NCBI RefSeq assembly: GCF_013122565.1
Contig: NZ_CP053258.1
Length of the DNA: 64,000 nucleotides
Strand: one strand, 5' to 3'
DNA from: Escherichia coli
GTDB lineage: Bacteria > Pseudomonadota > Gammaproteobacteria > Enterobacterales > Enterobacteriaceae
In this document: positions 22,871-47,560 of the stretch, in pieces
How positions within the stretch are numbered: position 1 is the stretch's first letter
How the letters are laid out: every line of letters begins with the position of its first letter
The notes under the pieces: model-generated
What the model saw: only the letters and a program-made list of their open reading frames with translations
The model's database searches: none
Told to the model about the DNA's origin: nothing
Made by a program: the position numbers and the translations under genes

Positions 22871-23014
22871 AACCTTTCCTTGCGACTTCTTTATCATCCA
22901 TTAATCGGGGAAAGATGGTGGGAGAGTGACGAAAGAAAGTAAAGCGGTGAGGAAGTATTTCGGAATAGCGCCTGAAAGGCGAGGGCGGGTGAGTGATATC
23001 ACCCGCCTGAGTCA

Positions 23015-23818
23015 TTAACGCTTCAGAGCGTCGCTTAACTCGTCACGCATGTTCGCCAGCATGGCTTTAACAACACGCGGGTTACCAGCAACGATGTTAC
23101 CGGTCAGCATATAGTTATGACCACCGGTGAAGTCGCTGACGATGCCGCCCGCTTCACGAACCAGCAGCTCGCCTGCAGCGAAGTCCCACGGGCGCAGACC
23201 GATTTCAAAGAAACCGTCAACACGACCCGCAGCGACGTAAGCCAGATCCAGCGCCGCAGAACCGGTACGACGGAAGTCTGCACATTCGTTGAACAGTTTG
23301 CCGACGATGTTGATGTAGGTAGTGGCGTACTGTTTTGCTTTGAACGGGAAGCCGGTCGCCAGAATAGTACCGTCGAGATCGCGAGCGGTGCTGCCGCGCA
23401 GACGGTAGCCGTTCAGCTGTGCGCCCTGACCGCGAGTGGCGGTGAACAGTTCGTTACGCATAGGATCGTATACCACAGCAACTTCGGTGCGGCCTTTGAT
23501 ACGAACGGCGATAGATACCGCGAAGTGCGGCAGACGTTTGATAAAGTTGGTAGTGCCATCCAGTGGATCGATAACCCATTGAACATCCTGATCAGTACCT
23601 TCAAGTTCACCGCTTTCTTCGGTGATGATGGTGTGCTGTGGGTAAGATTTACGAATCGTGTCGATAATCACCGCTTCGGCAGCTTTATCTACGTTGGTCA
23701 CGAAATCGTTACTGCCTTTCTGGCTCGCTTCTACAGCGTCCGGGGTTTCATAGTTTTTGGCAATTAAATTACCCGCCTTGCGCGCTGCGCGCACGGCGAT
23801 GTTCAGCATCGGATGCAT
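23015..23818 (-). CDS. suhB: Inositol monophosphatase family protein SuhB
   Basis: 267-aa ORF with IMPase motifs (DPLDGT, WDFAAG); divergent from trmJ. Confidence 0.93.
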   Translation of the reverse strand: MHPMLNIAVRAARKAGNLIAKNYETPDAVEASQKGSNDFVTNVDKAAEAVIIDTIRKSYPQHTIITEESGELEGTDQDVQWVIDPLDGTTNFIKRLPHFAVSIAVRIKGRTEVAVVYDPMRNELFTATRGQGAQLNGYRLRGSTARDLDGTILATGFPFKAKQYATTYINIVGKLFNECADFRRTGSAALDLAYVAAGRVDGFFEIGLRPWDFAAGELLVREAGGIVSDFTGGHNYMLTGNIVAGNPRVVKAMLANMRDELSDALKR

Positions 23819-23936
23819 CGGTCTCTCTCACTGGATGTTAAAGAACGGGAAAACGGCGCAGATTATAGCAGCGAGATCGGCATCTGTCTTCGTTTTATGA
23901 TAAGATGCGCTAATAATCTTTAGACGAAGAAAGACA

Positions 23937-24674
23937 ATGCTGCAAAATATTCGAATTGTGCTGGTGGAGACGTCACACACCGGCAATATGGGTTCTGTTG
24001 CCCGTGCCATGAAAACAATGGGATTAACCAATCTGTGGCTGGTTAATCCACTGGTGAAACCCGACTCCCAGGCGATTGCCCTGGCAGCAGGGGCCAGCGA
24101 TGTGATTGGTAATGCTCACATCGTCGATACGCTCGACGAAGCGTTAGCCGGTTGTAGCCTGGTGGTGGGCACCAGCGCACGCTCCCGCACGCTGCCGTGG
24201 CCGATGCTCGACCCGCGCGAATGCGGTCTGAAAAGCGTCGCTGAAGCGGCAAATACCCCGGTGGCGCTGGTTTTTGGTCGCGAGCGTGTTGGCTTGACCA
24301 ATGAAGAGTTGCAGAAATGCCATTATCATGTCGCGATTGCCGCGAACCCGGAATACAGCTCGCTGAACCTGGCGATGGCGGTGCAGGTTATTGCCTATGA
24401 AGTGCGTATGGCCTGGCTGGCAACTCAGGAAAACGGCGAGCAGGTCGAGCATGAAGAGACGCCATATCCGCTGGTCGATGATCTGGAGCGTTTTTATGGT
24501 CATCTCGAACAAACGCTGCTGGCAACCGGTTTTATTCGTGAAAACCATCCGGGGCAGGTGATGAATAAACTGCGACGTCTGTTTACCCGTGCGCGCCCGG
24601 AAAGCCAGGAATTGAATATCCTGCGCGGGATTCTGGCTTCTATAGAGCAGCAGAATAAAGGTAATAAGGCCTGA
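23937..24674 (+). CDS. trmJ: tRNA (cytidine/uridine-2-prime-O)-methyltransferase TrmJ (SpoU family)
   Basis: SPOUT-class methyltransferase sequence, 245 aa, directly upstream of iscR. Confidence 0.92.
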
Positions 24675-24696
24675 GGGCTAAGCCAGATAAATGCAC

Positions 24697-24746
24697 GGAC
24701 GGTCCCCTCGCCCCTTCGGGGAGAGGGTTAGGGTGAGGGGAAGAGG
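24697..24746. repeat. GC-rich stem-loop-forming element downstream of trmJ (REP-like / possible terminator)
   Basis: ggacggtcccctcgccccttcggggagagggttagggtgaggggaagagg contains nested inverted repeats (ccccttcgggg; tcccctc/gaggggaa). Confidence 0.35.
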
Positions 24747-24866
24747 CCAGCGCTAATGCGAATAATTGCCCTCAACCCGCCCATGGTCTGGAAGGACAAC
24801 AGGTACAAACGCCACGATAAAAAAATGGCACTGAAGGTTAAATACCCGACTAAATCAGTCAAGTAA

Positions 24867-24891
24867 ATAGTTGACCAATTTACTCGGGAAT
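24867..24891. promoter_or_regulatory. IscR type-1 binding site in iscR promoter
   Basis: atagttgaccaatttactcgggaat fits the IscR type-1 motif ATASYYGACTRwwwYAGTCRRSTAT as I recall it; a second similar site follows at about 24898-24922. Confidence 0.55.
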
Positions 24892-24974
24892 GTCAGACTT
24901 GACCCTGCTATGCAATACCCCCACTTTTACAATAAAAAACCCCGGGCAGGGGCGAGTTTGAGGTGAAGTAAGAC

Positions 24975-25463
24975 ATGAGACTGACATCTAAAGGGCGCTA
25001 TGCCGTGACCGCAATGCTTGACGTTGCGCTCAACTCTGAAGCGGGCCCGGTACCGTTGGCTGATATTTCCGAACGTCAGGGAATTTCCCTTTCTTATCTG
25101 GAACAACTGTTTTCCCGTCTGCGTAAAAATGGTCTGGTTTCCAGCGTACGTGGACCAGGCGGTGGTTATCTGTTAGGCAAAGATGCCAGCAGCATCGCCG
25201 TTGGCGAAGTGATTAGCGCCGTTGACGAATCTGTAGATGCCACCCGTTGTCAGGGTAAAGGCGGCTGCCAGGGCGGCGATAAATGCCTGACCCACGCGCT
25301 GTGGCGTGATTTGAGCGACCGTCTCACCGGTTTTCTCAACAACATTACTTTAGGCGAACTGGTTAATAACCAGGAAGTGCTGGATGTGTCTGGTCGTCAG
25401 CATACTCACGACGCACCACGCACACGCACACAAGACGCGATCGACGTTAAGTTACGCGCTTAA
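24975..25463 (+). CDS. iscR: Fe-S cluster assembly transcriptional regulator IscR (Rrf2 family)
   Basis: [55 protein letters not shown] with Cys ligands; 162 aa. Confidence 0.96.
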
Positions 25464-25476
25464 TAAAAAGAATTCA

Positions 25477-25540
25477 GAATCAGGCCGGGGCGTATCGCGC
25501 TCCGTAAACACGGTCGTACATCCAGCCGGTAGCCTGATTC
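25477..25540. promoter_or_regulatory. Structured iscR-iscS intergenic region (stem-loop; candidate site of RyhB-dependent differential stability)
   Basis: 9-bp arms gaatcaggc / gcctgattc enclosing a GC-rich interior, between the iscR stop and the iscS start codon. Confidence 0.45.
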
Positions 25541-25574
25541 CTTGCATTGAGTGATGTACGGAGTTTATAGAGCA

Positions 25575-26789
25575 ATGAAATTACCGATTTATCTCGACTA
25601 CTCCGCAACCACGCCGGTGGACCCGCGTGTTGCCGAGAAAATGATGCAGTTTATGACGATGGACGGAACCTTTGGTAACCCGGCCTCCCGTTCTCACCGT
25701 TTCGGCTGGCAGGCTGAAGAAGCGGTAGATATCGCCCGTAATCAGATTGCCGATCTGGTCGGCGCAGATCCGCGTGAAATCGTCTTTACCTCTGGTGCAA
25801 CCGAATCTGACAACCTGGCGATCAAAGGTGCAGCCAACTTTTATCAGAAAAAAGGCAAGCACATCATCACCAGCAAAACCGAACACAAAGCAGTACTGGA
25901 TACCTGCCGTCAGCTGGAGCGCGAAGGTTTTGAAGTCACCTACCTGGCACCGCAGCGTAACGGCATTATCGACCTGAAAGAACTTGAAGCAGCGATGCGT
26001 GACGACACCATCCTCGTGTCCATCATGCACGTAAATAACGAAATCGGCGTGGTGCAGGATATCGCGGCTATCGGCGAAATGTGCCGTGCTCGTGGCATTA
26101 TCTATCACGTTGATGCAACCCAGAGCGTGGGCAAACTGCCTATCGACCTGAGCCAGTTGAAAGTTGACCTGATGTCTTTCTCCGGTCACAAAATCTATGG
26201 CCCGAAAGGTATCGGTGCGCTGTATGTGCGTCGTAAACCGCGCGTACGCATCGAAGCGCAAATGCACGGCGGCGGTCACGAGCGCGGTATGCGTTCCGGC
26301 ACTCTGCCTGTTCACCAGATCGTCGGTATGGGCGAAGCCTATCGCATCGCAAAAGAAGAGATGGCGACCGAGATGGAACGTCTGCGCGGCCTGCGTAACC
26401 GTCTGTGGAACGGCATCAAAGATATCGAAGAAGTTTACCTGAACGGTGACCTCGAACACGGTGCGCCGAACATTCTCAACGTCAGCTTTAACTACGTTGA
26501 AGGTGAGTCGCTGATTATGGCGCTGAAAGACCTCGCGGTTTCTTCCGGTTCCGCCTGTACGTCAGCAAGCCTCGAACCGTCCTACGTGCTGCGCGCGCTG
26601 GGGCTGAACGACGAGCTGGCACATAGCTCTATCCGTTTCTCTTTAGGTCGTTTTACTACTGAAGAAGAGATCGACTACACCATCGAGTTAGTTCGTAAAT
26701 CCATCGGTCGTCTGCGTGACCTTTCTCCACTGTGGGAAATGTACAAGCAGGGCGTGGATCTGAACAGCATCGAATGGGCTCATCATTAA
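25575..26789 (+). CDS. iscS: Cysteine desulfurase IscS
   Basis: [19 protein letters not shown]..., PLP-lysine [10 protein letters not shown], active-site Cys region SSGSACTS; 404 aa from internal ATG. Confidence 0.97.
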
Positions 26790-26816
26790 TCGGTATCGGA
26801 ATCAGGAGAATTTATA

Positions 26817-27203
26817 ATGGCTTACAGCGAAAAAGTTATCGACCATTACGAGAATCCGCGTAACGTGGGTTCCTTTGACAACAACGACGAGAACGTCGGC
26901 AGCGGCATGGTGGGTGCACCGGCCTGTGGCGACGTGATGAAGTTGCAGATTAAAGTCAACGATGAAGGTATCATTGAAGACGCGCGTTTTAAAACTTACG
27001 GCTGCGGTTCTGCTATCGCTTCCAGCTCCCTGGTCACCGAATGGGTGAAAGGGAAGTCTCTCGACGAAGCGCAGGCGATCAAAAACACCGATATTGCTGA
27101 AGAACTTGAACTGCCGCCGGTGAAAATTCACTGTTCTATTCTGGCAGAAGACGCGATCAAAGCCGCCATTGCGGACTATAAAAGCAAACGTGAAGCAAAA
27201 TAA
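26817..27203 (+). CDS. iscU: Fe-S cluster scaffold protein IscU
   Basis: Conserved Cys motifs GAPACGDVMKLQ, YGCGSAIASS and LPPVKIHCS; 128 aa. Confidence 0.97.
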   Translation: MAYSEKVIDHYENPRNVGSFDNNDENVGSGMVGAPACGDVMKLQIKVNDEGIIEDARFKTYGCGSAIASSSLVTEWVKGKSLDEAQAIKNTDIAEELELPPVKIHCSILAEDAIKAAIADYKSKREAK

Positions 27204-27219
27204 GAGTTGAGGTTTGGTT

Positions 27220-27543
27220 ATGTCGATTACACTTAGCGACAGTGCAGCAGCGCGAGTAAATACCTTTCTGGCTAACCGTGGCAAAGGGTTTGGCCTGCGT
27301 CTGGGCGTGAGAACCTCCGGATGTTCAGGTATGGCTTATGTACTGGAATTTGTTGACGAACCGACGCCGGAAGACATCGTGTTTGAAGACAAAGGCGTGA
27401 AAGTCGTGGTCGATGGCAAAAGCCTGCAATTTCTGGACGGTACGCAGCTGGACTTCGTAAAAGAAGGCCTGAACGAAGGGTTTAAATTCACCAACCCGAA
27501 CGTTAAAGATGAGTGTGGTTGCGGCGAAAGCTTCCACGTTTGA
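27220..27543 (+). CDS. iscA: Fe-S cluster insertion protein IscA (A-type carrier)
   Basis: [13 protein letters not shown]... with C-terminal CGCGESF; start at ATG 27220. Confidence 0.96.
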
Positions 27544-27638
27544 TGCGCATACCGATAACCCCACCGTGGTCGCCTGCGCGTGGGGTTTGTTTTACCTGAT
27601 TCGCCGTTATCGCGGCGGATCGCAGCCCTGAGAATGTT

Positions 27639-28154
27639 ATGGATTACTTCACCCTCTTTGGCTTGCCTGCCCGTTATCAACTCGATACCCAGGCACTGAG
27701 CCTGCGTTTTCAGGATCTACAACGTCAGTATCATCCTGATAAATTCGCCAGCGGAAGCCAGGCGGAACAACTCGCCGCCGTACAGCAATCTGCAACCATT
27801 AACCAGGCATGGCAAACGCTGCGTCATCCGTTAATGCGCGCGGAATATTTGCTTTCTTTGCACGGCTTTGATCTCGCCAGCGAGCAGCATACTGTGCGCG
27901 ACACCGCGTTCCTGATGGAACAGCTGGAACTGCGCGAAGAACTGGACGAGATCGAACAGGCGAAAGATGAAGCGCGGCTGGAAAACTTTATCAAACGTGT
28001 GAAAAAGATGTTTGATACCCGCCATCAGTTGATGGTTGAACAGTTAGACAACGAGACGTGGGACGCGGCGGCGGATACCGTGCGTAAGCTGCGTTTTCTC
28101 GATAAACTGCAAAGCAGTGCCGAACAACTCGAAGAAAAACTGCTCGATTTTTAA
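27639..28154 (+). CDS. hscB: Co-chaperone HscB (J-domain)
   Basis: J-domain with HPD motif (QRQYHPDKF); 171 aa. Confidence 0.95.
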
Positions 28155-28170
28155 TTTCTGGAAGCTAAAC

Positions 28171-30021
28171 ATGGCCTTATTACAAATTAGTGAACCTGGT
28201 TTGAGTGCTGCGCCGCATCAGCGTCGTCTGGCGGCCGGTATTGACCTGGGCACAACCAACTCGCTGGTGGCGACAGTGCGCAGCGGTCAGGCCGAAACGT
28301 TAGCCGACCATGAAGGCCGTCACCTGCTGCCATCTGTTGTTCACTATCAACAGCAAGGGCATTCGGTGGGTTATGACGCGCGTACTAATGCAGCGCTCGA
28401 TACCGCCAACACAATTAGTTCTGTTAAACGCCTGATGGGACGCTCACTGGCTGATATCCAGCAACGCTATCCGCATCTGCCTTATCAATTCCAGGCCAGC
28501 GAAAACGGCCTGCCGATGATTGAAACGGCGGCGGGGCTGCTGAACCCGGTGCTCGTTTCTGCGGACATCCTCAAAGCACTGGCGGCGCGGGCAACTGAAG
28601 CCCTGGCAGGCGAGCTGGATGGTGTAGTTATCACCGTTCCGGCGTACTTTGACGATGCCCAGCGTCAGGGCACCAAAGACGCGGCGCGTCTGGCGGGCCT
28701 TCACGTCCTGCGCTTACTTAACGAACCGACCGCTGCGGCTATCGCCTACGGGCTGGATTCCGGTCAGGAAGGCGTGATCGCCGTTTATGACCTCGGTGGC
28801 GGGACGTTTGATATTTCCATTCTGCGCTTAAGTCGCGGCGTGTTTGAAGTGCTGGCAACCGGCGGTGATTCCGCGCTCGGCGGCGATGATTTCGACCATC
28901 TGCTGGCGGATTACATTCGTGAGCAGGCGGGCATTCCTGATCGTAGCGATAACCGCGTTCAGCGTGAACTGCTGGATGCCGCCATTGCAGCCAAAATCGC
29001 GCTGAGCGATGCGGACTCCGTGACCGTTAACGTTGCGGGCTGGCAGGGCGAAATCAGCCGTGAACAATTCAATGAACTGATCGCGCCACTGGTAAAACGA
29101 ACCTTACTGGCCTGTCGTCGCGCGCTGAAAGACGCGGGTGTAGAAGCTGATGAAGTGCTGGAAGTGGTGATGGTGGGCGGTTCTACTCGCGTGCCGCTAG
29201 TGCGTGAACGGGTAGGCGAATTTTTCGGTCGTCCACCGCTGACTTCCATCGACCCGGATAAAGTCGTCGCTATTGGCGCGGCGATTCAGGCGGATATTCT
29301 GGTGGGTAACAAGCCAGACAGCGAAATGCTGCTGCTTGATGTGATCCCACTGTCGCTGGGCCTCGAAACGATGGGCGGCCTGGTGGAGAAAGTGATTCCG
29401 CGTAATACCACTATTCCGGTGGCCCGCGCTCAGGATTTCACCACCTTTAAAGATGGTCAGACGGCGATGTCTATCCATGTAATGCAGGGTGAGCGTGAAC
29501 TGGTACAGGACTGCCGCTCGCTGGCGCGTTTTGCGCTGCGTGGTATCCCGGCGTTACCGGCTGGCGGAGCGCATATTCGCGTAACGTTCCAGGTTGATGC
29601 CGACGGTCTTTTGAGCGTGACGGCGATGGAGAAATCCACCGGCGTTGAGGCGTCTATTCAGGTCAAACCGTCTTACGGTCTGACCGATAGAGAAATCGCT
29701 TCGATGATCAAAGACTCAATGAGCTATGCCGAGCAGGACGTAAAAGCCCGAATGCTGGCAGAACAAAAAGTAGAAGCGGCGCGTGTGCTGGAAAGTCTGT
29801 ACGGCGCGCTGGCTGCTGATGCCGCGCTGTTAAGCGCCGCAGAACGTCAGGTCATTGACGATGCTGCCGCTCACCTGAGTGAAGTGGCGCAGGGCGATGA
29901 TGTTGACGCCATCGAACAAGCGATTAAAAACGTAGACAAACAAACCCAGGATTTCGCCGCTCGCCGCATGGACCAGTCGGTTCGTCGTGCGCTGAAAGGC
30001 CATTCCGTGGACGAGGTTTAA
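28171..30021 (+). CDS. hscA: Hsp70-type chaperone HscA
   Basis: [10 protein letters not shown]...[11 protein letters not shown] Hsp70 ATPase motifs; start at internal ATG 28171 giving 616 aa. Confidence 0.96.
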
Positions 30022-30570: not shown

Positions 30571-30747
30571 TTTCCGCGTCATGCTTCACGCCGCAGATGC
30601 GTTGGCTGCGCTCGTTCACCCCAGTCACATAGTTATCTATGCTCCTGGGGCTTCACTCACTTGCCGCCTTCCTGCAACGCGAATCATTTAGCGGAAAAAT
30701 CCTGGGGCTGCCAACTGGCGGCCCTTTTACAAAGAAGGATAACTAAA

Positions 30748-32173: not shown

Positions 32174-32950
32174 ATGTCCGAAACAAAAAACGAACTTGAA
32201 GACCTGCTGGAAAAAGCAGCAACCGAACCGGCTCACCGCCCGGCCTTTTTCCGTACTCTACTGGAATCCACCGTCTGGGTGCCGGGTACGGCGGCGCAGG
32301 GCGAGGCAGTAGTTGAAGATAGCGCGCTTGATTTACAGCACTGGGAAAAAGAAGATGGCACCAGCGTCATTCCTTTTTTTACCTCGTTAGAAGCACTTCA
32401 ACAGGCGGTTGAAGACGAACAGGCATTTGTCGTAATGCCCGTTCGCACATTGTTTGAGATGACCCTTGGTGAAACGCTCTTCCTTAATGCCAAACTGCCA
32501 ACCGGTAAAGAGTTTATGCCGCGTGAAATCAGTTTGTTGATTGGTGAAGAAGGGAGTCCGCTGAGTAGTCAGGAAGTACTGGAAGGCGGTGAATCGCTGA
32601 TATTATCGGAAGTCGCAGAGCCGCCAGCACAAATGATTGATTCACTCACCACCTTATTTAAAACCATTAAGCCAGTGAAGCGTGCTTTTATTTGTTCAAT
32701 TAAAGAGAACGAAGAGGCACAGCCTAATTTACTTATTGGCATTGAAGCCGATGGTGATATCGAAGAAATTATTCAGGCGGCGGGAAGTGTAGCGACCGAT
32801 ACATTACCTGGCGATGAACCAATCGATATTTGTCAGGTGAAAAAAGGGGAAAAAGGAATTAGCCACTTTATTACCGAACATATTGCGCCATTCTATGAAC
32901 GTCGCTGGGGTGGTTTTTTGCGTGACTTTAAACAGAATCGGATAATCTAA
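32174..32950 (+). CDS. sseB: Protein SseB (enhances serine sensitivity)
   Basis: MSETKNELEDLLEKAATEPAHRPAFFRTLLEST...; 258 aa from ATG 32174; adjacent to pepB as in K-12. Confidence 0.88.
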   Translation: MSETKNELEDLLEKAATEPAHRPAFFRTLLESTVWVPGTAAQGEAVVEDSALDLQHWEKEDGTSVIPFFTSLEALQQAVEDEQAFVVMPVRTLFEMTLGETLFLNAKLPTGKEFMPREISLLIGEEGSPLSSQEVLEGGESLILSEVAEPPAQMIDSLTTLFKTIKPVKRAFICSIKENEEAQPNLLIGIEADGDIEEIIQAAGSVATDTLPGDEPIDICQVKKGEKGISHFITEHIAPFYERRWGGFLRDFKQNRII

Positions 32951-32953
32951 AAT

Positions 32954-32975
32954 ATGCCGCCCTAAAGGGCGGCAT
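32954..32975. terminator. Stem-loop after sseB, also positioned as terminator of the minus-strand toxin transcript
   Basis: atgccgccc taaa gggcggcat hairpin; on the minus strand it is followed by AUUUUA. Confidence 0.5.
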
Positions 32976-32981
32976 TCTGGC

Positions 32982-33119
32982 TTACCTGCTGTTCTGAAGG
33001 TTGTTAACCACCAGTAAATTGTCGCCGGAGAGACTCCGGTTATTATTTACCTCGGTTAACAGCGCACCAGAAACAATAAGTACGATACAGAAGCACCGTA
33101 TCTTCATTGTGCGGTCCAT
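32982..33119 (-). CDS. Small hydrophobic peptide, candidate type I toxin (TimP/RyfA-encoded-like), copy 1
   Basis: Minus-strand translation MDRTMKIRCFCIVLIVSGALLTEVNNNRSLSGDNLLVVNNLQNSR (internal Met gives 41 aa from 33107); single predicted TM-like segment; lies at the ryfA locus between sseB and sseA; below the 60-aa cutoff of the ORF track. Confidence 0.45.
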   Translation of the reverse strand: MDRTMKIRCFCIVLIVSGALLTEVNNNRSLSGDNLLVVNNLQNSR

Positions 33120-33330
33120 GCGAAGACCGCATCACGACAGCACCACTGGCGATATTGCCGCGATAGCAAGCGCTGAGACGCGCTTGCTCTAAAGGTCGCG
33201 GAACATCCTTTCCTTAAGCCAGCGCCCGCTTGCGAGACGGCGGAAAGGGCCGCAGTGGATAATACACTAACAGAACAATAATAACTCTCTTTTGCTTGAC
33301 AAAAAGAGAGTTACTGGCGAGTATTGTCTC

Positions 33331-33427
33331 CGCTGAGACGCGCTTGCATTACTACGGTAATACAACCTGCTGGAAAGGCCGCGAACCAAACCGGCAACAA
33401 ATAGCCGCCTGATTTTGGCGGTTTTTT
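33331..33427 (+). ncRNA. Divergent small RNA (TimR/RyfB-like antitoxin candidate), copy 1
   Basis: Sigma70-like promoter TTGACA (33296-33301), 17-bp spacer, GAGTAT (33319-33324); terminator ccgcc...ggcgg plus T6 at 33405-33427; 5-prime 17 nt (33331-33347) are the exact complement of the toxin mRNA leader segment at 33171-33187. Confidence 0.45.
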
Positions 33428-33552
33428 GTTGTTTAAAGAAAGTGAAATTACACGTTTAAGTAATATCTTTTATTGGTTAGTATTTTTAATATTAAGCGAA
33501 AATTGTTTATATTTGTCTGAATTCGGACTAATAAGTCAGGTTATTTTAATAT

Positions 33553-33628
33553 CGAACATATTGCGCCATTCTATGAATGTCGCTGGGGTGGGCTTTTGCG
33601 TGACTTTAAACAGAATCGGATAATCTAA
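33553..33628 (+). pseudogene. Duplicated 3-prime fragment of sseB (unit 2)
   Basis: Near-identical copy of sseB 32875-32950 including the stop codon and followed by a copy of the terminator hairpin; no upstream sseB sequence. Confidence 0.8.
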
Positions 33629-33659
33629 AATATGCCGCCCCAAAGGGCGGCATTCGGGC

Positions 33660-33797
33660 TTACTTGCTGCTCTGACGGTTGTTAACCACCAGTAAATTGT
33701 CGCCGGAGAGACTCCGGTTATTATTTACCTCGGTTAACAGCGCACCAGAAACAATAAGTACGATACAGAAGCACCGTATCTTCATTGTGCGGTCCAT
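33660..33797 (-). CDS. Small hydrophobic peptide, candidate type I toxin, copy 2
   Basis: Same ORF as copy 1 with identical hydrophobic core; C-terminal tail differs (…VVNNRQSSK). Confidence 0.45.
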   Translation of the reverse strand: MDRTMKIRCFCIVLIVSGALLTEVNNNRSLSGDNLLVVNNRQSSK

Positions 33798-34008
33798 GCG
33801 AAGACCGCATCACGACAGCACCACTGGCGATATTGCCGCGATAGCAAGCGCTGTGAAACACCTGCATTTACGGCCACGGAACATCCTTTCCTAAAGCCAG
33901 CGCCCGTTTGCGAGACGGCGGAAAGGGCCGGTGTCGATAATACGCTAAATAAACAATAATTACTCTCTTTTGCTTGACAAAAAGAGAGTTGCTGGCGAAT
34001 ATTGCTCT

Positions 34009-34109
34009 GCTGTGAAGCACCTGCGTTGCTCATGCAACACAAGTCAATCTGCTGGAGAGGCCGCGAACCAAACCGGCAACAAATAACCGCCTGATCTTGG
34101 CGGTTTTTT
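34009..34109 (+). ncRNA. Divergent small RNA (TimR/RyfB-like), copy 2
   Basis: TTGACA (33974-33979), 17-bp spacer, GAATAT (33997-34002); terminator at 34087-34109; 5-prime gctgtgaagcacctgc matches mRNA-leader segment 33850-33865 (two positions form G-U pairs). Confidence 0.45.
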
Positions 34110-34234
34110 GTTGCTTAAAGAAAGTGAATTTACATGTTTAAGTAATATCTTTTACCGGTTAGTATTTTTAATATTGAGCGGGATTTGTTTATATTTGTCT
34201 GAATTCGGACTAATAAGCCAGGTCATTTTAATAT

Positions 34235-34310
34235 CGAACATATTGCGCCATTCTATGAACGTCGCTGGGGTGGTTTTTTGCGTGACTTTAAACAGAATCG
34301 GATAATCTAA
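34235..34310 (+). pseudogene. Duplicated 3-prime fragment of sseB (unit 3)
   Basis: Identical to sseB 32875-32950 including stop; followed by terminator hairpin copy. Confidence 0.8.
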
Positions 34311-34341
34311 AATATGCCGCCCCAAAGGGCGGCATTCGGGC

Positions 34342-34479
34342 TTACCTGCTGTTCTGAAGGTTGTTAACCACCAATAAATTGTTGCCGGAGAGACTCCGGT
34401 TATTATTTACCTCAGTTAACAGCGCACCAGAAACAATAAGTACGATACAGAAGCACCGTATCTTCATTGTGCGGTCCAT
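34342..34479 (-). CDS. Small hydrophobic peptide, candidate type I toxin, copy 3
   Basis: Same ORF; relative to copy 1 two synonymous changes and one D-to-N change (…SLSGNNLLVV…). Confidence 0.45.
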   Translation of the reverse strand: MDRTMKIRCFCIVLIVSGALLTEVNNNRSLSGNNLLVVNNLQNSR

Positions 34480-34693
34480 GCGAAGACCGCATCACGACAG
34501 CACCACTGGCGATATTGCCGCGATAGCAAGCACTGTGGGGTGCCTGTATTTACGGTCATGGAACATCCTTTCCTAAAGCCAGTGCCCGTTTGCGAGACGG
34601 CGAAAAGGGCCGTTAAGAATAATACTCTCATGTTTGAATAATTACTCTGTTTATTATCTTGACATGGCCAGGCATAAAAGAGAGTATTTCAAC

Positions 34694-46344: not shown

Positions 46345-47463
46345 ATGCATAACCAGGCTCCAATTCAACGTAGAAAATCAACACGTATTTACGTTGGGAA
46401 TGTGCCGATTGGCGATGGTGCTCCCATCGCCGTACAGTCCATGACCAATACGCGTACGACAGACGTCGAAGCAACGGTCAATCAAATCAAGGCGCTGGAA
46501 CGCGTTGGCGCTGATATCGTCCGTGTATCCGTACCGACGATGGACGCGGCAGAAGCGTTCAAACTCATCAAACAGCAGGTTAACGTGCCGCTGGTGGCTG
46601 ACATCCACTTCGACTATCGCATTGCGCTGAAAGTAGCGGAATACGGCGTCGATTGTCTGCGTATTAACCCTGGCAATATCGGTAATGAAGAGCGTATTCG
46701 CATGGTGGTTGACTGTGCGCGCGATAAAAACATTCCAATCCGTATTGGCGTTAACGCCGGATCGCTGGAAAAAGATCTGCAAGAAAAGTATGGCGAACCG
46801 ACGCCGCAGGCGTTGCTGGAATCCGCCATGCGTCATGTTGATCATCTCGATCGCCTGAACTTCGATCAGTTCAAAGTTAGCGTGAAAGCGTCTGACGTCT
46901 TCCTCGCTGTTGAGTCTTATCGTTTGCTGGCAAAACAGATCGATCAGCCACTGCATCTGGGGATCACCGAAGCCGGTGGTGCGCGCAGTGGGGCAGTAAA
47001 ATCCGCCATTGGTTTAGGTCTGCTGCTGTCTGAAGGCATCGGCGACACGCTGCGCGTATCGCTGGCGGCCGATCCGGTCGAAGAGATCAAAGTCGGTTTC
47101 GATATTTTGAAATCGCTGCGTATCCGTTCGCGCGGGATCAACTTCATCGCCTGCCCAACCTGTTCGCGTCAGGAGTTTGATGTTATCGGTACGGTTAACG
47201 CGTTGGAGCAACGCCTGGAAGATATCATCACTCCGATGGACGTTTCGATAATCGGCTGCGTGGTGAATGGCCCAGGTGAGGCGCTGGTTTCTACACTCGG
47301 CGTCACCGGCGGCAACAAGAAAAGCGGCCTCTATGAAGATGGCGTGCGCAAAGACCGTCTGGACAACAACGATATGATCGACCAGCTGGAAGCACGCATT
47401 CGTGCGAAAGCCAGTCAGCTGGACGAAGCGCGTCGAATTGACGTTCAGCAGGTTGAAAAATAA
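46345..47463 (+). CDS. ispG: 4-hydroxy-3-methylbut-2-enyl diphosphate synthase
   Basis: Fe-S ligands CPTCSR...GCVVNGPGE; 372 aa. Confidence 0.96.
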
Positions 47464-47465
47464 TA

Positions 47466-47560
47466 ACGTGATGGGAAGCGCCTCGCTTCCCGTGTATGAT
47501 TGAACCCGCATGGCTCCCGAAACATTGAGGGAAGCGTTGAGGGTTCATTTTTATATTCAG
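47466..47560 (+). ncRNA. sroE: Possible SroE-like sRNA in the ispG-hisS intergenic region
   Basis: Position-only inference: I recall an sRNA (SroE) in the ispG-hisS spacer of E. coli; region contains hairpin gggaagcg-cctc-gcttccc (47473-47491). Sequence identity was not verified. Confidence 0.25.

Follow-up and report, generated by a model that had tools for sequence, protein, structure and literature searches.

The iscR-iscS spacer and its inverted repeat

The window is the whole 64,000-nucleotide stretch of E. coli DNA that was analysed. It carries suhB (- strand), trmJ, iscR, iscS, iscU, iscA, hscB and hscA, in the same order as in Escherichia coli K-12. The iscR stop codon TAA occupies positions 25461-25463 and the iscS ATG positions 25575-25577, leaving an intervening spacer (25464-25574) of exactly 111 nt, which is the length that the 2009 work of Desnoyers et al. 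reportedly gave for the non-translated section. The following features were located in this part of the window.

24975-25463, + strand: iscR coding sequence (162 aa), the upstream cistron, whose mRNA would be the one protected (open reading frame list; annotated iscR in matching E. coli genomes)
25477-25485, + strand: 5' arm of helix P1, GAAUCAGGC (pair probabilities; paired in 100% of cells, 18 sequences; 2 compensatory pairs)
25532-25540, + strand: 3' arm of helix P1, GCCUGAUUC (complementarity; covariation; RNAalifold; pair probabilities)
25560-25563, + strand: iscS Shine-Dalgarno sequence GGAG, 11 nt 5' of the ATG and invariant in the alignment
25575-26789, + strand: iscS coding sequence (MKLPIYLDY...), the first downstream cistron that RyhB-promoted decay would hit (open reading frame list; annotated iscS)

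A sequence-only reading of the spacer had described 9-bp arms at 25477-25485 and 25532-25540. They were found exactly there: GAATCAGGC and GCCTGATTC are 9 nt long, 100% complementary and 46 nt apart. The interior (25486-25531), which had been called GC-rich, has a G+C content of 63% vs 52% for the window. The same reading spoke of a long inverted repeat; the arms are real, but "long" was an overstatement, as they amount to 9 bp closing a three-way junction and not to a single long hairpin. The Shine-Dalgarno GGAG begins 20 nt past the 3' arm.

Perfect 9-nt inverted repeats with a loop of at most 60 nt numbered 32 in the window vs 12.1 ± 2.9 in dinucleotide shuffles of the 64 kb, and a perfect 9-nt repeat was present in 49 of 5000 shuffles of the spacer itself (approximately 1%). 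Since such repeats are not rare in shuffled sequences, the 9-nt repeat alone is weak evidence.

Identity with RF01517 and comparison with K-12

A search against Rfam assigned nearly the entire spacer to one family.

25464-25573, + strand: Rfam RF01517, "iscRS, iscR stability element" (134 bits vs a gathering score of 40; model positions 1-110 of 110)

The E-value of this match was 2.6e-36 to 1.2e-34, depending on the search size, and the corresponding sequence of K-12 MG1655 scored 138.1 bits. The match lies on the sense strand between iscR and iscS, which are followed by iscU, iscA, hscB and hscA, and in the Rfam consensus the arms are the nine-pair helix that surrounds two inner hairpins, P2 and P3. 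The proposal that this is the spacer structure protecting iscR is supported by the full-length RF01517 match at 134 bits, and the mechanism described with it agrees with published accounts. The inverted repeat in the window is very probably helix P1 of the iscRS iscR stability element RF01517, a cis-acting RNA in the iscRSUA mRNA, with the RyhB mechanism proposed for it. The feature is already known and curated and this genome carries a standard, intact copy, so that its presence here confirms a known element and adds no new biology.

Comparison with K-12 showed 102 of 111 spacer positions to be identical. All nine differences fall within 25489-25499, at the tip of P2, and the arms are unchanged. 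In the window allele, P2 has an 8-bp stem (CGGGGCGU / GCGCUCCG) and a 3-nt loop, AUC; in the K-12 allele, it has a 7-bp stem (CGGAGUG / UACUCCG) and a 5-nt loop, CUAAA. Between the two alleles, both bases of one pair differ (U-A to C-G), and in two further pairs a single base does. A divergence from K-12 that would keep the stem from forming, which the sequence-only reading had named as fatal to its proposal, was not found in the spacer, because the nine differences are confined to the P2 tip and the hairpin is kept; both arms are identical and P2 still forms. Relative to RF01517 and the K-12 structure of Desnoyers et al. 2009 (EMBO J 28:1551), the position, strand, P1 arms, P3, P4, Shine-Dalgarno sequence and RyhB site are identical, whereas the P2 tip of the window carries nine substitutions and its core is predicted to be approximately 4 kcal/mol more stable. 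Judging from near-identity to the characterised K-12 sequence, the element probably has the same function in this strain.

Predicted fold

P1 closes a 64-nt, Y-shaped three-way junction with inner hairpins P2 and P3 (core 25477-25540). The remaining helices, including two that belong to the Rfam model, are as follows.

25486-25504, + strand: P2, inner hairpin, CGGGGCGU-AUC-GCGCUCCG (fold; K-12 alignment; 5/6 pairs changed on both sides across genera)
25508-25530, + strand: P3, inner hairpin, AC-CGG / CCGGU stem with a 12-nt apical loop, UCGUACAUCCAG (Rfam consensus; 5/5 pairs covary)
25471-25475 with 25561-25565, + strand: P0, outer 5-bp helix of the Rfam model, AAUUC with GAGUU, overlapping the Shine-Dalgarno sequence (Rfam consensus)
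25543-25558, + strand: P4, small 3' hairpin of the Rfam model (Rfam consensus)

The core folds with a dG of -29.5 kcal/mol (z = -4.06), and none of 200 shuffles was equally stable. Folding of the spacer as a 117-nt segment, the check suggested by the sequence-only reading, gave -35.4 kcal/mol (z = -2.2) with P1-P3 present. Minimum free energy (MFE) and centroid structures both contain P1, P2 and P3. In each of three contexts exceeding the spacer in length, all nine pairs of P1 have probabilities of at least 0.97; folding the 111-nt spacer by itself lowers the outermost two to 0.81 and 0.86, with the other pairs reaching up to 1.0. P1 and P2 had pair probabilities of 0.95-1.0, and P3 of 0.67-1.0, in the 460-nt and 1300-nt contexts and in a transcript ending at 25545; two pairs of P3 were at approximately 0.7 in contexts longer than the spacer.

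P0 and P4 are able to form in the isolated spacer. Across 18 sequences, P0 is paired in 74% of cells and shows no covariation, and its probability is 0.69 in the isolated spacer and 0.0 in longer contexts; P4 is paired in 87.5% of cells with no double changes, and its probability is below 0.01 in longer contexts. Because they show no double changes and are lost in longer contexts, these two helices were treated as uncertain, being context-dependent and poorly supported.

Conservation across Enterobacterales

Loci were gathered from species-representative genomes via the IscR protein, which was used as bait because selection on the spacer itself is thereby avoided. Eighteen spacers from at least 11 enterobacterial genera were aligned with MAFFT, without reference to structure. 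P1 is paired in 100% of cells in the 18 sequences, closes the MFE fold of 18/18 cores and was recovered unaided by RNAalifold. It contains two compensatory double changes, A-U to G-C in Enterobacter sp. Bisph1 and G-C to A-U in Klebsiella sp. BIGb0407, and four of its pairs vary through G-U wobble only. Double changes were seen in 5/6 pairs of P2 and 5/5 pairs of P3 in the same 18 sequences. For the whole structure, 86.8% of cells are paired vs 35-47% with slid partners, and none of 500 shuffles reached the observed covariation.

The length of the iscR-iscS spacer varies among lineages: approximately 27-33 nt in Vibrionaceae, 49-70 nt in Yersinia, Serratia, Dickeya, Photorhabdus and Hafnia, and 107-242 nt in the RF01517-positive Enterobacteriaceae (sensu stricto). 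Equally long spacers in a few genera outside Enterobacteriaceae, exemplified by those of Brenneria, Pectobacterium, Rahnella and Rouxiella, gave no RF01517 match. Scores at or above gathering were obtained only in Escherichia, Citrobacter, Pluralibacter, Enterobacter spp., Pseudocitrobacter, Superficieibacter, Cedecea sulfonylureivorans and Shimwellia. Cedecea neteri fell just under the gathering score (39.0 bits), and Mangrovibacter and an isolate named Klebsiella sp. fell further under.

A different family, the IscS-1 ICR thermometer RF02783, was detected at the orthologous iscR-iscS junction in Serratia, Hafnia, Yersinia, Photorhabdus, Dickeya, Brenneria and one unclassified Enterobacteriaceae metagenome-assembled genome, with matches of 62-212 bits in loci L015, L019, L021, L024, L026, L028 and L038 (at about 1596-1800; 488-694 in L038). 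Like RF01517, the RF02783 element known from Yersinia is a cis-acting RNA structure in the orthologous Enterobacterales iscR-iscS spacer; unlike it, RF02783 is a separate model, running from the 3' end of iscR up to the start of iscS. The role proposed for it is temperature control of iscS translation, not iscR stabilisation. The window gave no RF02783 match, either at the gathering score (58 bits) or at an E-value of up to 10. Since the relatives match RF02783 instead and the spacers of Vibrionaceae are short, the RF01517 structure looks like an acquisition specific to Enterobacteriaceae.

P3 loop and a possible long-range contact

The P3 loop, UCGUACAUCCAG (25514-25525), has 10 of 12 columns invariant vs 2 of 23 in P2 (11 sequences). 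Its core, CGUACAUC (25515-25522), is a perfect 8-nt complement of GAUGUACG (25553-25560), a segment that borders the iscS Shine-Dalgarno sequence and falls within the RyhB site predicted below. This pairing is kept in 87.6% of cells vs 17-47% for slid controls, the structure tested being one derived from one of the sequences compared. As the 3' partner is invariant, such a pseudoknot is beyond the reach of covariation. The contact is absent from the Rfam consensus structure and the conservation of the P3 loop goes beyond the curated model. A pseudoknot or other long-range contact tying the stability module to the iscS ribosome-binding site is nevertheless quite unlikely in our estimation; if true, it might tune iscS translation, compete with RyhB or position the point at which decay stops.

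A further complementarity of 9 nt was noticed between ACAUCCAGC (25518-25526) and GCUGGAUGU in the iscR coding sequence (25379-25387). It was set aside, as the pairing competes with P3 and translating ribosomes would disrupt it.

Predicted pairing with RyhB

RyhB was taken from K-12. Plain RNAduplex of RyhB against 25400-25700 returned a meaningless 126-nt "duplex" and gave way to duplexes computed window by window, with opening energies taken into account. The best predicted site lies immediately downstream of the structure and covers both the Shine-Dalgarno sequence and the AUG of iscS.

25549-25577, + strand: predicted RyhB site; RyhB nt 39-68 would pair with three blocks, GAGUGAUG, GGAGU (the Shine-Dalgarno sequence) and GAGCAAUG, the last containing the AUG

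The hybridisation energy of this duplex is -22.7 kcal/mol and the total -7.7 kcal/mol, the site itself being predicted to be largely base-paired (opening cost 11.7 kcal/mol). Shuffled RyhB cores hybridised equally well in 9 of 1000 cases, and 132 of the 6394 60-nt windows in the 64 kb matched the hybridisation score, which places the site in the top 2%. The hybridisation energy is not specific alone; therefore, the pairing claim rests on position, conservation and the literature. Positions 25549-25577 are nearly invariant in the 18 sequences, and RyhB is described as binding the iscS Shine-Dalgarno sequence or translation start (PMC11572966, PMC10020718, PMC3089445, PMC8300815). Pairing of RyhB at the iscS ribosome-binding site is an in silico prediction for the window.

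Proposed mechanism

The genes iscRSUA are transcribed as one polycistronic mRNA (PMC12533949, PMC11572966, PMC5040110). RyhB-dependent cleavage and structure-dependent accumulation of iscR are described for K-12 in passages of PMC12533949 and PMC11572966 (citing Desnoyers et al. 2009), and the mechanism is also stated in PMC5040110, PMC3089445 and PMC8300815. In these and related accounts, the iscSUA 3' part is degraded via RNase E and iscR persists (PMC11572966, PMC10020718, PMC5040110, PMC3089445, PMC8300815). A literature search for Term-seq data on the iscR 3' end found none.

Applied to the window, the sequence of events would be as follows. Under iron limitation, Fur repression of ryhB would be lifted, and RyhB together with Hfq would pair with the iscS Shine-Dalgarno/AUG region just downstream of the structure (about 25549-25577). 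Translation of iscS would then be blocked and RNase E would cleave the downstream iscSUA part. Decay of the upstream fragment would halt at the stable P1-P3, and a translatable iscR mRNA ending in the structure would accumulate; the resulting apo-IscR would tilt expression towards the Suf system. The present analysis computed the fold with its conservation and covariation, the assignment to RF01517, the close match to K-12 and the complementarity to RyhB. We infer that P1-P3 would physically block 3'-to-5' exonucleases and/or RNase E.

The element is a textbook example of how a small RNA can give the parts of a single polycistronic mRNA different fates, by which cells would keep IscR synthesis for the switch to Suf while the Isc machinery is shut down when iron is scarce. 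Stabilising intercistronic hairpins and REP sequences, e.g. in malE-malF, protect upstream mRNA from 3'-to-5' exonucleases, and resemble the present element in principle: through a stable structure at the 3' side of one cistron, parts of an operon's mRNA come to differ in stability. Unlike these, the window element is single-copy, locus-specific and folded as a three-way junction, and its effect would be coupled to cleavage induced by a small RNA. Another parallel is Spot 42 on galETKM, where a small RNA pairs at an internal cistron's ribosome-binding site while expression of the genes before it continues (PMC3089445, PMC10020718); iscRS differs from it in having a dedicated upstream structure credited with preserving the 5' fragment, as well as in the small RNA, the operon and the signal.

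Alternative explanations

The structure might act mainly on iscS translation, insulating or repressing its ribosome-binding site, possibly as a temperature or condition switch like RF02783 of Yersinia. Several pairings reach into this site: P0 (25471-25475 / 25561-25565) overlaps the Shine-Dalgarno sequence, CUCCGUA at 25500-25506 is complementary to UACGGAG at 25557-25563, and CGUACAUC in the P3 loop (25515-25522) is complementary to GAUGUACG (25553-25560). The Shine-Dalgarno sequence and AUG are moreover predicted to be paired in longer contexts (unpaired probability at most 0.33), and sister families have a different curated cis-regulator in the same spacer. However, P0, at 74% pairing, lacks covariation and is gone in longer contexts; complementarity between the interior and the downstream segment exceeds that of shuffles only in Escherichia and one Enterobacter; RF02783 finds no match in the window even at an E-value of up to 10; and the robust, covarying P1-P3 excludes the Shine-Dalgarno sequence. 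We consider a main role in iscS translation unlikely, and such a role could coexist with the stability function and need not replace it. An intrinsic terminator or attenuator after iscR, working independently of RyhB, would account for a strong, G+C-rich structure soon after a stop codon, but it is very unlikely: neither strand of 25300-25700 holds a terminator-like site, and the scan of this region returned no promoter-like site, the sequence past the 3' arm, CCUUGCAUUGAG (CCUUGCAUUG), is without a U run, and iscRSUA is described as a single polycistronic mRNA.

Two further readings concern the origin of the repeat. One takes it for a dispersed REP/BIME palindrome or a mobile-element remnant that acts as a generic stabiliser of upstream mRNA. 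The ATCAGGC/GCCTGAT of the arms presumably resembles REP-type motifs, the long spacer is confined to one lineage, and an ERIC-like mobile repeat does enter the spacer in 493 E. coli genomes and in Citrobacter werkmanii. Against this, each of 5424 E. coli genomes has the element at a single place, with no copies elsewhere or on plasmids; it always lies between iscR and iscS, in at least 11 genera; and its interior evolves by compensatory change while the architecture is fixed. A REP or mobile-element origin, which we judge extremely improbable, was rejected on the single copy per genome. The other reading, a functionless chance repeat, would draw on the approximately 12 perfect 9-nt inverted repeats (loop of at most 60 nt) expected in 64 kb, yet P1 is paired in 100% of cells with covariation across genera, the core has a z of -4.06 and the Rfam match is full-length. 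Its probability is vanishingly small, chance origin being refuted by the Rfam match, the covariation and the fold stability. The iscR stability element RF01517 is the preferred reading of the spacer.

Alleles of the element in E. coli

With a 241-nt query, 5424 of 5426 complete E. coli genomes proved to have the element, each at a single place. The region 25400-25640 had no exact match among complete E. coli genomes (best 98.8%), and for the 6-kb housekeeping stretch 23000-29000 no complete E. coli genome was more than 99.0% identical.

The P2 tip (25489-25499) is dimorphic in E. coli, with nine differences in 11 nt, flanks otherwise identical and the hairpin kept. Searches with 57-nt queries found the window type, GGGGCGTATCGCGCTCC, in 1875 of 5426 genomes and the K-12 type, GGAGTGCTAAATACTCC, in 3205 of 5426, again at a single place in each genome, making the window allele the second most common in E. 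coli; E. albertii carries the window type. At position 25537, E. coli 118UI, E. albertii, Citrobacter and a number of further genera differ in the 3' arm, which in them is GCCUGGUUC; this natural variant turns a U-A pair of P1 into a U-G wobble in 7 of the 18 sequences. A replacement of GAAUCAGGC by GAAAGUGGC may be given as an example of a hypothetical P1-arm substitution.

Directly after the iscR stop codon (equivalent to window 25464/25465), 493 of the 5426 complete E. coli genomes carry a 127-nt ERIC/IRU-like insertion, as at L003:366-492 (E. coli NZ_CP062851). It matches, at 18 of 22 bases each, what we take to be the ERIC1R and ERIC2 primer sequences. What the insertion changes is the 5' strand of P0; P1-P3, the 9-bp arms included, are intact and RF01517 still scores 119.9 bits. 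Citrobacter werkmanii has an ERIC-like element at the equivalent site (L006:1698-1821, 76% identity), and a diverged copy (68% identity) is present in the window itself at 30577-30691, approximately 550 nt beyond the end of hscA (stop at 30021). Together, the swap of the P2 tip, the wobble variants of the arms and the insertion of the ERIC-like element form a natural allele series, that is, ready-made variants for testing how much of the structure is needed.

Other RNAs in the window

Three tandem, full-length ryfA copies (RF00126; 314-324 bits) were found on the - strand at 32949-33253, 33627-33931 and 34309-34613, interleaved with two IS128 RNAs (RF00125) at 33385-33595 and 34067-34277. The array (32949-34613) has a repeat unit of approximately 680 nt with hairpins of the form ATGCCGCCC-4 nt-GGGCGGCAT; K-12 presumably has one ryfA. 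The sroE small RNA (RF00371) was located at 47463-47554 on the + strand, with a score of 116.6 bits.
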